Below the pieces are notes generated by a model. That model worked only from the letters and a program-made list of their open reading frames with translations, made no database searches and was not told the origin of the DNA. This document shows, in pieces, positions 34,066 to 37,573 of a stretch of DNA of 42,999 bases (its first letter is position 1; every line of letters begins with the position of its first letter). A program made the position numbers and the translations under genes. The stretch covers positions 1-42,999 of the IMG/VR virus record IMGVR_UViG_2703718845_000002. One strand, written 5' to 3'. This DNA is from a virus (Duplodnaviria; Heunggongvirae; Uroviricota; Caudoviricetes).

Positions 34066-34169
34066 GTGGTTAGCTCCTATCAACTCATGAGCAAACAATA
34101 CCACAAGTATTAAACATTGCAATACCGCTAGTATTTTTAAAATAAGAACATTGGTATTACTATTTGAAA
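34066..34169. promoter_or_regulatory. OR region: operators and divergent pR / pRM promoters
   Basis: Two 15-bp palindromic operators AATACCACAAGTATT (34097..34111) and AATACCGCTAGTATT (34121..34135), 24 bp centre to centre, between divergent cro and cI; a third degenerate site may lie near 34145..34160. Confidence 0.7.
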
Positions 34170-34880
34170 ATGGAAAAGAAAAAGACACTGACATCGGCTC
34201 AGATCGCTGACGCAGAAAGGCTGAAAGCCCTCTATGAAGCCAAGAAAAAAGAGCTTGGGATAACACAGCAATCAATAGCTGACATGCTAGACATATCTCA
34301 GGGGGGCGTTGGGCATTACTTGAATGGCAGGAATGCCCTTAATGCTGCCGTGGCTGCTGTTTTTGCCAGAGCCCTCCAGGTGGATGTCTCTGATTTTAGC
34401 CCCAGCCTTGCGAAAGAAATATCTGCAATGAGTGCTTCCGCTACATCGAATGCCAAGTATGCAGGCCAGTACACCCCAGGCATTAAATACCCTGTATTAA
34501 GCAAGATTCAGGCTGGGCATTGGTCGGAAGCGTGCGAGCCGTATGCACTTAAAGATATCGATCTATGGCTAGAATCAGACGCTCACATCCAGGGGGATGC
34601 GTTCTGGTTGTTGGTCGAGGGGGAATCCATGACTGCCCCGGTCGGGCTCAGCATACCAGAGGGTACCTACGTTTTGTTTGATACCGGCCGAGAGCCAGTA
34701 AATGGCAGCCTTGTGATCGCAAAGCTATCCGAATCAAACGAAGCGACATTCAAAAAGCTGATTATTGATGGGGGCCAGAAGTACCTGAAGGGCTTAAACC
34801 CTCAATGGCCATTGGTTCCCATCAATGGGAATTGCCGGATCATTGGTGTGGCTGTAGAAACTAAGTTGAGACTTGTGTGA
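34170..34880 (+). CDS. cI: CI repressor (HTH plus LexA/S24-like autocleavage domain)
   Basis: MEKKKTLTSAQIADAERLKALYEAKKKELGITQ and C-terminal GESMTAP ... FKKLIIDGGQKYLKGLNPQWP parallel lambda CI; track start 34164 is TTG, first ATG at 34170. Confidence 0.9.
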   Translation: MEKKKTLTSAQIADAERLKALYEAKKKELGITQQSIADMLDISQGGVGHYLNGRNALNAAVAAVFARALQVDVSDFSPSLAKEISAMSASATSNAKYAGQYTPGIKYPVLSKIQAGHWSEACEPYALKDIDLWLESDAHIQGDAFWLLVEGESMTAPVGLSIPEGTYVLFDTGREPVNGSLVIAKLSESNEATFKKLIIDGGQKYLKGLNPQWPLVPINGNCRIIGVAVETKLRLV

Positions 34881-34981: not shown

Positions 34982-35746
34982 GTGATCAGAATAGGAAGGT
35001 TACTACCTGGCGGCATTGCAATTGACGAAGGGCAACATCACCCGATAAAGGGCGTTGCTCTTTTGATAAAAGAAAATAGCGAACCAGAAGAGATTGTTGT
35101 TTTTGCAAAAGAAATTTCTTCCAGGAGCATTTCTATAGAAATAACCTGCGCAGCCTTGGGAAGAGCTCTATCCCTGCCTATACCCGAGCCAGTACTACTG
35201 TTTGACAGCTCAAACAAAGCATTTTTTGGTAGTGTTGATGCTACCTATCCGAGTTTCATGAAGTATGTTTCTAACTCTTCAGATCAGGCCGTTTCTGATG
35301 CTTTGGCATCATGGCCGTTATTGAAAAAAGCTAGCTATTTTGATGAGTGGATTGCGATGGATGACCGTCACAACGGAAATTTGCTTTTCAATGGTGATGG
35401 TTTCTTCCTGATAGACCATGAATCGGCAATTCCCCAAGGTCTTGCCCCTGACCTTTTCGGGATAGATTATTACTCCAATCAATTGCTGCAGGTAGCAACT
35501 TACATACTCGATAGAAGTAATGATATAGCCGTTCAGATGATGGCAAATGAGGCGAGAGCTTGGACCATGTCTTGCAAGAGTAACACCCTAACGCTATTAG
35601 ATGGAGAGATATCCGAAACAGTTCAAGGTAAAGAGAAAAATCAAATAATGTCTTTCCTTTCATCTAGAATTGAGTTACTAGGAGACATTCTTTATGATCA
35701 AATCAAGCCCCAACAAACACAGATGATATACGATGCTAAATCTTGA
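34982..35746 (+). CDS. Kinase-like protein (HipA/CtkA-like or APH-like catalytic motifs), first gene of rex-position cargo operon
   Basis: GTG start with AGAGG SD 9 nt upstream, no in-frame ATG nearby; 254 aa; AT-rich; motifs VVFAKEI, MDDRHNGNLLF (D-x-H-x-x-N) and FFLIDHES. Confidence 0.6.
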   Translation: MIRIGRLLPGGIAIDEGQHHPIKGVALLIKENSEPEEIVVFAKEISSRSISIEITCAALGRALSLPIPEPVLLFDSSNKAFFGSVDATYPSFMKYVSNSSDQAVSDALASWPLLKKASYFDEWIAMDDRHNGNLLFNGDGFFLIDHESAIPQGLAPDLFGIDYYSNQLLQVATYILDRSNDIAVQMMANEARAWTMSCKSNTLTLLDGEISETVQGKEKNQIMSFLSSRIELLGDILYDQIKPQQTQMIYDAKS

Positions 35747-36614
35747 TCAGCTTCTTAAGTCAGCTCCTGCTATGCCTGCAACATCAGGGCGCTGGGCATC
35801 TGTTTATCTTGAACCAATGATCGGCTCAGGAGAGCGGCTCACGGTAGCAGTTGCCACGATAACATCATCTGGTGAAATTTTAGTTAAGCCGGCAATCAGA
35901 AAAGAAGTTATAGAAGCTATGTATGGCTTCAAAGCACCAGCATTTATCAATGTGGTTGATCTGATTTTGTCGAGTTTGAAGTTGCATCTGGCTGCTAAGG
36001 GGGATTTCGTATCATGGCATCCTCCAGTTACAGGCGTCACTATAAGCGCCGTAAGGAATGCTGCGTCATCAAGCCCTGTTGGCATACTCCGCCAAGCGGT
36101 ATCATTGTCATCGAGTTTGTCATCACTCCTTGAGGCTGAAGAAGATTCCGATGGGTTGCCAGCTAAGCAATCAAGAACTAAAGACAGGTGGCCAATTCAA
36201 ATCTTTGATGCGGTTATCAGCGCTGACGGACGCAGGGATATTTTTTTCAATAGAAGCTTCACCTTTAGTGATGGACACAGACCGGCTAAAATTTTCTATC
36301 TAAGCGATCATGCAGCTATCAACACCGGAAAACTGTTACCCCACAACTTGAATGAGCAGGTTAAGGATGGAAAAGCAAAAATATCTGACTTATCAATGAT
36401 AAAAAGGCAAGGCGATATTTTTCCAAGAGAAACTCATCAAATGATTATCTACAAACCGGAAGATGATAGCCCTGCATACAATGATAGGCACATAGCATCA
36501 ATAAATAGTGCGTACCTTTCTTTACAGGACTTGGCTAACACCTACGATGTATCAATCACTTCTGTAAGCACTGCCGAGCATGCAGCAAGGTTAATATTGC
36601 AAACTGCAGCATAA
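35733..36614 (+). CDS. Unknown partner protein of rex-position operon (tentatively DUF3037-like N-terminus)
   Basis: ATG at 35733 overlaps the 3' end of the kinase-like gene by 14 nt; 293 aa; AT-rich; N-terminal YLEPMIGSGERLTVAVA; no recognisable catalytic motif. Confidence 0.6.
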   Translation: MLNLDQLLKSAPAMPATSGRWASVYLEPMIGSGERLTVAVATITSSGEILVKPAIRKEVIEAMYGFKAPAFINVVDLILSSLKLHLAAKGDFVSWHPPVTGVTISAVRNAASSSPVGILRQAVSLSSSLSSLLEAEEDSDGLPAKQSRTKDRWPIQIFDAVISADGRRDIFFNRSFTFSDGHRPAKIFYLSDHAAINTGKLLPHNLNEQVKDGKAKISDLSMIKRQGDIFPRETHQMIIYKPEDDSPAYNDRHIASINSAYLSLQDLANTYDVSITSVSTAEHAARLILQTAA

Positions 36615-36621
36615 CTTTTGA

Positions 36622-36645
36622 TCCGGCCACCGCGCCGGGTTTTTA
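36622..36645 (+). terminator. Rho-independent terminator ending the cI/cargo operon
   Basis: Plus-strand CCGGC-CACCGC-GCCGG followed by T5, 8 nt after the stop of the second cargo gene. Confidence 0.55.
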
Positions 36646-36650
36646 CTGCC

Positions 36651-36854
36651 CTACTCTTCCCTCAGCATCAGCACGTCCAGCGCCAACTCCACAGCCAGAT
36701 CGACCTGGTCTTCCTGCCACAACACCTGAATCATCTCTATCAGCGCCTCTCTTGAGGGCTCGCGCTTCTCAACCAGCAGTTGCATAACCACTATCCCGAT
36801 GACCTGCGCTATCTGCGGGTGCATTTCTGCGAAAAACTCATCCTCATTTGACAT
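36651..36854 (-). CDS. Small acidic protein, convergent to the cargo operon
   Basis: 67 aa, ATG at 36854 with AAAGGGG SD; pI strongly acidic (ending LMLREE); GC content like the phage backbone; promoter would lie in the OL region. Confidence 0.45.
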   Translation of the reverse strand: MSNEDEFFAEMHPQIAQVIGIVVMQLLVEKREPSREALIEMIQVLWQEDQVDLAVELALDVLMLREE

Positions 36855-36924
36855 GCCAACACCCCTTTATGATGTTTTTTTGAGCATAACAGCACTTTTT
36901 ACAAAAATAAATTAACTTTAAAAT

Positions 36925-36996
36925 CATACCTTTAGTATTTTTATTAAACATCATAATACTGGCGGTATTGATATAAAATAATACCGGGAGTATTAT
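36925..36996 (+). promoter_or_regulatory. OL region: three operators and pL promoter
   Basis: Operators CATACCTTTAGTATT (36925..36939), AATACTGGCGGTATT (36955..36969), AATACCGGGAGTATT (36980..36994), same consensus as OR; sigma70-like pL with -35 TTGATA (36968..36973), 17-bp spacer, -10 TATTAT (36991..36996). Confidence 0.7.
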
Positions 36997-37075
36997 GATC
37001 TCATCCAAACAACACCGGCAACGCCGGGGTGAAGTCAAAACGTCCCGTTAGCCGCGATAAGGCAAAGGTGAAGAG

Positions 37076-37192
37076 ATGATCCGCGAAGAAGATAAAACCG
37101 AGTGGTTTAAGTTTCTGGCACACGCATTCGCCATCGTCGTATGCGTACTGATAGCAAGTGCGTTCTGCCTGATGCCTGGTGGTTCAGCATGA
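37076..37192 (+). CDS. Tiny membrane peptide (38 aa), first gene after pL; not in supplied track
   Basis: ATG at 37076 with AAGGTGAAGAG SD; MIREEDKTEWFKFLAHAFAIVVCVLIASAFCLMPGGSA has one predicted TM helix; stop overlaps the next ATG. Confidence 0.45.
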   Translation: MIREEDKTEWFKFLAHAFAIVVCVLIASAFCLMPGGSA

Positions 37193-37299
37193 GCAGAAAC
37201 GGCATTCGTTCACTGATTTACTGCCTGCTGATCTGCGGAGTTATCTGGACAGCGTTGATTATCAAAATTCTGCACGTTACGGGGGTGTTCAATGGCTAA
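37189..37299 (+). CDS. Tiny membrane peptide (36 aa), translationally coupled; not in supplied track
   Basis: ATG at 37189 overlapping the previous stop (ATGA); MSRNGIRSLIYCLLICGVIWTALIIKILHVTGVFNG has one TM helix; stop overlaps the start of the next ORF. Confidence 0.4.
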   Translation: MSRNGIRSLIYCLLICGVIWTALIIKILHVTGVFNG

Positions 37300-37486
37300 C
37301 TCAATTCCTAACAGCGGACGCGCCGTGATGATGCGTAACGCTAAAACTGGCGCCACATGGAAGGTTTCACGTGACTACCTGAAAGAAACCTTCTGGTTCG
37401 AGCCTCAAGGCAACCTGCGCCACATTCGCAAAGCATTTGAGGCACGCGACCTGCTGCCAAACCTGGTACCAGCTGGGACGCATTAA
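37292..37486 (+). CDS. Hypothetical small protein in early-left operon
   Basis: 64 aa, ATG at 37292; not Arg-rich, so not an obvious N-type antiterminator. Confidence 0.45.
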   Translation: MANSIPNSGRAVMMRNAKTGATWKVSRDYLKETFWFEPQGNLRHIRKAFEARDLLPNLVPAGTH

Positions 37487-37573
37487 CCGCGCATATCAGC
37501 GCACGAATTTAACTGAGCTATCAGGCAGCCAATACGGTGCCGGGATTCTTACAACCAAATTTCAGGGGAAACC

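Follow-up and report, generated by a model that had tools for sequence, protein, structure and literature searches.

The immunity region of this prophage raises a simple question: what is the small gene that is read against cI and its cargo genes next to OL, and from which promoter is it expressed? The window (the whole stretch of 42,999 nucleotides that was analysed, positions 1 to 42,999 of the IMG/VR record IMGVR_UViG_2703718845_000002) is a lambdoid prophage, oriented with pL rightward: cro, cII and the replication genes run leftward from ~34080, and pL drives small ORFs followed by recombination genes of the gam/bet/exo type. A preliminary description of the locus had reported a strongly acidic minus-strand ORF of 67 aa preceded by an AAAGGGG Shine-Dalgarno sequence (SD), and had suggested that it is transcribed under repressor control. 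The features discussed below are collected in Table 1.

Table 1. Coordinates of the small gene, its predicted signals and the surrounding immunity region (window positions)
Feature	Position	Strand	Basis or remark
cI	34164..34880	+	rightward
Two cargo genes	34982..35746 and 35733..36614	+	cI-linked, rightward
t_imm-like intrinsic terminator of the cI-cargo operon	36622..36644	+	hairpin 36622-36639, T-run (T5) 36640-36644
67-aa acidic protein gene	36651..36854	-	ORF list; PHROG 3946; RefSeq 'hypothetical protein' WP_001548448.1 in E. coli JNQH497
Shine-Dalgarno AAAGGGG	36862..36868	-	read from sequence; 7 nt ahead of ATG (36854-36852)
Predicted extended -10 TGtTATGCT	36883..36891	-	conservation; TG 36891-90, hexamer TATGCT 36888-83
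A/T box ATTTATTTTT, with candidate -35 TTTATT	36903..36912	-	invariant beside at least 5 operator types; candidate -35 at 36911-06, 17-bp spacer
OL3 operator CATACCTTTAGTATT	36925..36939		pattern search; one mismatch to AATACN5GTATT
Weak alternative promoter-like site TTTATA-16-TATGAT, overlapping OL2	36950..36977	-	9/12 matches; immunity-type-specific
OL2 / OL1, overlapping pL	36955-36969 / 36980-36994		pattern search
pL TTGATA-17-TATTAT	36968..36996	+	10/12 sigma-70 consensus matches; divergent from the candidate promoter of the small gene

The 67-aa frame is a real, widespread and uncharacterised small prophage gene. Its coordinates, SD and composition (15 D/E against 4 K/R, pI 4.1) agreed with the preliminary description, and RefSeq and phage records list the ORF as a CDS. 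The protein matched the PHROG 3946 HMM over its full length (residues 1-67 of 67, E=1.2e-38, 131.8 bits). Its relatives fell into 540 clusters in a collection of 5.8 billion proteins, all of them unnamed or 'hypothetical', and numbered 238 in IMG/VR; the family is compact, since a full HMMER scan of 1.84 billion representatives returned 48 clusters only. Conservation in related phages, on which the preliminary description had staked its proposal, was found: the reading frame was intact, with a length of exactly 204 nt, in 78 of the 84 related loci, the mean dN/dS of the ORF was ~0.11 and the variable columns were distributed 32/19/53 over the three codon positions. The family is kept down to 38% protein identity despite divergence of the DNA, and a purine-rich GGG/GAGG element occupies the SD position in all lineages. 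A reading of the ORF as a by-product of conserved cis elements was ruled out by the dN/dS and the codon-position pattern.

Scans of the 67-aa protein against Pfam, NCBIfam and PADLOC gave nothing significant, and a profile search against PDB sequences gave noise only (Syo1, E=0.35). No Rfam match was obtained for positions 36400-37300, and a full-text literature search on family peptides and PHROG 3946 matched no paper. Gene calls of the family in databases are often N-terminally extended to 78-118 aa, the conserved start giving 67 aa, and the gene was left unannotated in epsilon34, ST104 and g341c.

A prophage of E. coli JNQH497 matches the region with 99.7% identity, and the phage records nearest to the window are Klebsiella prophages. 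Wherever it occurs in a phage, the gene is found on the strand opposite to the cI operon, in the interval from OL/pL to the operon's end. The lambdoid prophages that carry it were found in Klebsiella, E. coli (including Stx phages), Salmonella, Enterobacter and Yersinia, and the species representatives with a homologue include Enterobacter, Trabulsiella, Rahnella and Yersinia. In Klebsiella phage ST101-KPC2phi6.1 the gene adjoins rexB/rexA; Salmonella SPN9CC and epsilon34 carry a homologue at the same position, as does an E. coli O157:H7 Stx phage, and a 38%-identical homologue stands directly between N and cI, without cargo. The Stx-phage homologue was present in 50 E. coli genomes, among which Sakai and EDL933 are not named. 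BTP1 was absent from the phage matches to the 67-aa gene; its cI-bstA locus is covered by a transcriptome paper on the BTP1/D23580 prophage (PMC7067206). A search for published transcription starts yielded none that could be linked to the gene.

Two distant homologues (41-48% identity; L086 4001-5048 and L090 874-1077) are chromosomal and lie outside prophages. One is found a few kb from icd, with GGDEF/DUF7661 genes on one side of it and a DUF2767 (FumD-like) gene on the other; the second homologue adjoins ydfZ. The layout around the homologue near icd recalls the E. coli ycgZ-ymgA-ariR cluster near c-di-GMP genes; BLASTP of the neighbours of the chromosomal homologue against YcgZ and YmgA revealed no similarity.

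Several observations were made on the pL side of the locus. No N-like antiterminator was seen after pL in the window (37000-37500, plus strand). Behind a conserved GC hairpin in the pL leader (CCGGCAACGCCGG, 37015-37027) come small hydrophobic ORFs of 38 and 52 aa and then a 64-aa PHROG 3722 protein. One of the pL-side neighbour genes is a phage cell-division inhibitor according to RefSeq.

The limits of the conserved unit were determined by aligning the upstream sequences of 82 loci, together with the downstream sequences. Homology begins at the box ATTTATTTTT (36912-36903) and ends at the hairpin GGCAGTAAAAACCCGGCGCGGTGGCCGGG, the right-hand boundary; the cassette so delimited opens with the A/T box, continues with a promoter-like extended -10 element, the SD and the ORF, and closes with the t_imm hairpin. 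At least 5 unrelated operator sets were found upstream of the box among the aligned loci, and the same gene (85-99% identical) occurs beside at least 5 unrelated operator/CI types. Homology between loci stops exactly at the terminator hairpin, and past it the cargo is unrelated from locus to locus: RexAB, a HipA-like pair, a KilA-N/BstA-like protein, a ParA-like ATPase, others, or none. Because the operators upstream and the cargo downstream are both unrelated, the small gene is independent of immunity type and of cargo.

The preliminary description had presented the gene as a minus-strand unit of its own, convergent to cI and the cargo genes, and this view stands: 36 nt separate the two stop codons, and this gap contains the operon's terminator. 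On the plus strand the terminator folds with -12.3 kcal/mol and is followed by UUUUU, while its minus-strand counterpart is a 5-bp hairpin (-10.9 kcal/mol) with no U-tract. In four loci (L034, L045, L073 and L075) a second small ORF is present on the same strand, ~30 nt past the 67-aa ORF and before the shared hairpin. It encodes 57 aa (MRPPITKEEVELLMQDMEMLAEQ...) behind a strong AAGGAGG RBS, and gave no match in PADLOC. As this second ORF also precedes the shared hairpin, the unit behaves as an operon on the minus strand.

The ATG of the small gene and OL3 are 70 bp apart, and the promoter-like element is located within this interval. The candidate promoter (TTTATT-17-TGtTATGCT) spans 36911..36883 and is separated from OL3 by 13 bp; transcription is predicted to start at ~36876, in an A7 run (36881-75), which would give a 5' UTR of ~22 nt. 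Across the loci the cassette follows one pattern: the box, 7-8 freely varying bases, GTGCTGkTAwGCT, CAAAAAAAC and the RBS. Of the 81 loci whose box is strict, 77 carry the motif TGnNAnnnT at the right offset, and 8 further loci carry it with the box variant GTTTATTTTT. The element is kept in eleven lineages: the window type, one further variant of it, four other Klebsiella/E. coli immunity variants, Salmonella, the 38% homologue, Enterobacter, Trabulsiella and the Stx phage. All carry TGn and a hexamer (TATGCT, TAAGCT, CATACT, GATACT or TATTTT) that never varies at positions 2 (A) and 6 (T), amid differing flanks. In 11/11 lineages a distance of 17-18 bp separates the -10 from the box and one of 22-31 nt separates it from the start codon downstream, while the sequence of the spacer varies freely. 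Yersinia and Rahnella are exceptions: the box lies ~95-100 nt from the ATG, the leader is longer and there is no extended -10 at the box offset; a TGcTAAATT-type element, read by eye, is found nearer the gene in the Yersinia loci.

The candidate -35 (TTTATT) matches the consensus at only 3 of 6 positions, which is why the promoter was not called by a generic scan. Extended -10 promoters tolerate a poor -35. The conservation of the element indicates that the small gene is most probably transcribed from its own sigma-70 extended -10 promoter and not from a repressor-controlled one. Most loci retain the A7 run at the predicted start (36875-36881, minus strand) as CAAAAAAAC; its role could be in reiterative transcription or as a leader element.

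The operators were located by pattern search. AATACN5GTATT was matched 6 times in the window (0.76 expected), and five of these matches fall in OR/OL, two at OR and three at OL. The wider spacing noted earlier for OL3 was confirmed, the centre-to-centre distance being 30 bp for OL2-OL3 and 25 bp for OL1-OL2. The preliminary description had gone on to state that the only possible promoter region of the small gene overlaps OL3, and to suggest from this a repressor-controlled leftward transcript. The statement did not hold and the suggestion found no support: a conserved promoter-like element stands clear of the operator, and OL3, at about -49 to -63 from the predicted start, falls outside the core of this candidate promoter. 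Because the predicted promoter is clear of OL3, expression is expected to be largely independent of direct occlusion by CI, and so may be possible in the lysogen. OL3, centred at about -56, could still affect alpha-CTD contacts.

The alternative closest to that earlier proposal is that the only promoter is a CI-repressed one inside OL, and that the product is an early lytic protein released on induction, for example an antirepressor-like one. We regard this as unlikely. Some features of OL fit it: the weak site at 36977-36950 overlaps OL2 and is one of 5 such sites in the region, where 1.5 would be expected; the hexamer after OL2 is TATNAT-like in variants of the window immunity type; and a TATGAT at 36928-23 overlaps the edge of OL3. 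The gene, however, is linked to at least 5 unrelated operator sets, so an operator-specific promoter cannot be the conserved one, and the extended -10, which is conserved, is nearer to the gene. In the conserved candidate neither the -35 nor the -10 is overlapped by an operator, whereas the weak site is. An antirepressor would moreover be expected to co-vary with the CI type, and the 67-aa gene does not; no antirepressor family was matched in Pfam, PHROG or NCBIfam, and a search of positions 36600-37100 for a LexA box found none. The antirepressor-like role that had been put forward accordingly found no support, the gene being found beside at least 5 CI/operator types with no family match; the site overlapping OL2 could add a CI-repressed transcript.

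Comparison with lambda supplied a reference state for the same interval. In lambda, ATTTATTTTTT is found at 35673-35683 (L098 374-384), i.e. at -91 to -101 from the pL start (35582); the window box ATTTATTTTT is at -91 to -100 from its own pL start. Both regions upstream of pL thus carry the same A/T box at a matching distance, and in lambda rexB is followed, as the cargo is in the window, by the same hairpin (AAAACCCGGCGC...GGCCGGG, t_imm). What lies between them differs: the box-to-hairpin interval of lambda is ~110 bp long, non-coding and devoid of an extended -10, and the window has the extended -10, the SD and the 204-nt ORF. The earlier statement that the unit has no lambda counterpart was therefore borne out, in the sense that the slot is present in lambda without the ORF. 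A second copy of the box, CTATTTATTTTTC, was observed inside the lambda spacer (L098 445-457).

An UP element proximal to OL stimulates lambda pL and, through the CI loop, pRM (PMC3708714 and PMC8053113, citing Giladi 1998, Cui 2013 and Michalowski & Little 2013). By position, the A/T box would be this UP element. Since the box is also present in the pL/pRM upstream region of lambda, its conservation alone is no proof of a role as -35; the extended -10, found only where the ORF is, is the specific evidence for the predicted promoter. The box beside OL3, at the position of the lambda UP element, is conserved across immunity types, and in ORF-carrying phages it may also serve a divergent promoter as its -35.

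A related alternative is that the unit acts mainly in cis or as RNA, tuning expression of the immunity region, with the peptide being secondary. Two routes can be envisaged: convergent transcription would run through the weak hairpin and enter the cI-cargo operon at its 3' end, in keeping with a minus-strand hairpin that lacks a U-tract, or polymerase at the A/T box would compete with the use of the UP element by pL and pRM, in keeping with the coincidence of the candidate -35 and a box at the lambda UP-element position (PMC3708714, PMC8053113). The strong purifying selection on amino acids (dN/dS 0.11), the retention of the protein down to 38% identity while the DNA has diverged, and the existence of chromosomal, non-phage homologues all argue against the peptide being secondary, and make this alternative very unlikely.

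The nature of the product was approached by structure prediction. An AlphaFold model built with 16 homologues contained three helices (3-28, 35-45 and 53-63; pLDDT 83). When it was searched against the PDB with Foldseek, the first match was 2OXL_A, E. coli YmgB/AriR (probability 0.98, TM 0.61/0.65, rmsd 2.5 Å), and all other PDB matches had a probability of 0.35 or less. The 38%-identical phage homologue, modelled independently (pLDDT 89.7), again had 2OXL as its first match (probability 0.98, TM 0.67/0.70, 58 columns). The Foldseek E-values for 2OXL were only 0.4-0.5, the fold being very small and all-helical. No convincing match was obtained among the viral predicted structures of BFVD (best probability 0.44). 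At the sequence level, hhalign against a YmgB/YcgZ alignment gave E=0.002 with a probability of only 13.8%, over 35 columns covering helices 1-2, and Pfam PF10798 was not matched by the window protein and 15 homologues even at E<=10 (gathering cut-off 22.3 bits; AriR itself scores 90.3 bits and YcgZ 24.9 bits). On the strength of the models, the 67-aa protein appears to be AriR-like in fold; we do not call it a member of the YmgB/AriR family, as the link in sequence is weak.

YmgB/AriR, encoded in the ycgZ-ymgA-ariR-ymgC operon, is likewise a small (60-90 aa), all-helical, cytosolic protein. The two differ in several respects: aligned identity is 15-20%, and neither Pfam nor NCBIfam gives a match; the ~28 residues that extend AriR at its N-terminus are missing from the phage protein, which is also much more acidic; and the phage gene lies in a prophage immunity region, whereas ariR is in a chromosomal operon controlled by BluR. 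[quoted passage not shown]

It was also considered whether the protein belongs instead with DUF2767/YdhZ ('fumarase D'), to which a sequence signal about as weak as that for YmgB points. The two are alike in size (67 and 69 aa) and in an N-terminal acidic motif followed by a V-x-G hydrophobic helix (EDEFFAEM..VIG.VV against EDELYREM.VVGKVV), hhalign gave E=0.013, and the distant homologue P0156, encoded two genes from a true DUF2767 gene, scored 14.7 bits against PF10965 and 13.3 bits against NCBIfam NF007630. These scores are below the cut-offs (20.7 bits for Pfam, 82 bits for NCBIfam), only 22 columns align and neither Pfam nor NCBIfam matches the window protein; no DUF2767 structure was among the PDB matches for a comparison of folds. 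DUF2767 proteins, unlike the phage protein, are chromosomal and basic to neutral in the C-terminal half. We hold this assignment to be highly improbable.

The cargo of the window consists of two genes with a 14-nt overlap (34982-36614, plus strand). The first gene encodes a HipA_2-like kinase, with a Pfam score of 25.5 bits that falls just short of the cut-off and a weak match to PADLOC PDC-M66A, and the second a 293-aa PHROG 21150 protein; the pair is probably a defence or abortive-infection pair. The proposal that the acidic protein is a dedicated partner of this cargo (an antitoxin, immunity factor or regulator), prompted by its position adjoining and convergent with the kinase gene and its PHROG 21150 partner, has next to no likelihood, as the same protein is found beside RexAB, BstA/KilA-N-like, ParA-like and other cargos or beside cI alone, has no PADLOC match, and is cut off from the cargo by a break of homology exactly at the terminator hairpin; with the gene independent of cargo identity, the regulatory partnership suggested in the preliminary description was discarded as well.

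The explanation that we favour, and to which we give about an even chance of being right, is that the locus is a portable moron cassette with its own extended -10 promoter and an AriR-like, host-modulating product, which is neither an antirepressor nor a cargo partner. The cassette would fill the slot that in lambda is the non-coding DNA between the A/T box upstream of pL and t_imm. Transcription would run leftward from the candidate promoter, back-to-back with pL. The reality of the gene, the boundaries of the cassette, its independence of immunity type and cargo and the resemblance in fold are shown; promoter activity, the timing of expression, the target and the function are inferred. The product would be a small acidic three-helix protein with, as modelled, a YmgB/AriR-like fold. 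By analogy with the action of YmgB on RcsC and SpoT, it is predicted to bind and modulate a host regulatory protein, and would then serve as a lysogenic-conversion or host-modulation factor. With respect to a moron-like organisation, lambda has the same junctions without the gene, a promoter is predicted from conservation alone, and only on the opposite strand does the hairpin make a good terminator.

Like the prophage morons and lysogenic-conversion genes rexAB and bstA (PMC7067206), the small gene is an accessory gene in the mosaic cI-to-pL interval, with a predicted promoter of its own. Unlike rexAB and bstA, it lies on the strand opposite to the cI operon and is not co-transcribed with cI; it is conserved beside hypervariable cI-linked cargo, and it matches no defence family.

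The 67-aa gene is among the most constant features of a hypervariable cI-to-pL hot spot in which defence cargos are swapped. Its carriers are prophages of clinically important Klebsiella, E. coli (including Stx phages) and Salmonella, in which it is recorded only as 'hypothetical' or left unannotated. A more specific proposal, which we consider quite unlikely, is that these phage proteins are AriR-like connectors that are expressed in lysogens from a constitutive promoter, the -35 of which is the UP-element box of pL/pRM, and that they bind RcsC/RcsD or SpoT, with their expression coupled to the OL-OR loop. If this were true, the connector would reprogramme capsule or envelope stress, or the stringent response, for example as capsule-based superinfection exclusion in Klebsiella. 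If the gene is expressed in lysogens and its product acts as YmgB/AriR does, it would offer prophages a route into host Rcs/capsule or ppGpp signalling.
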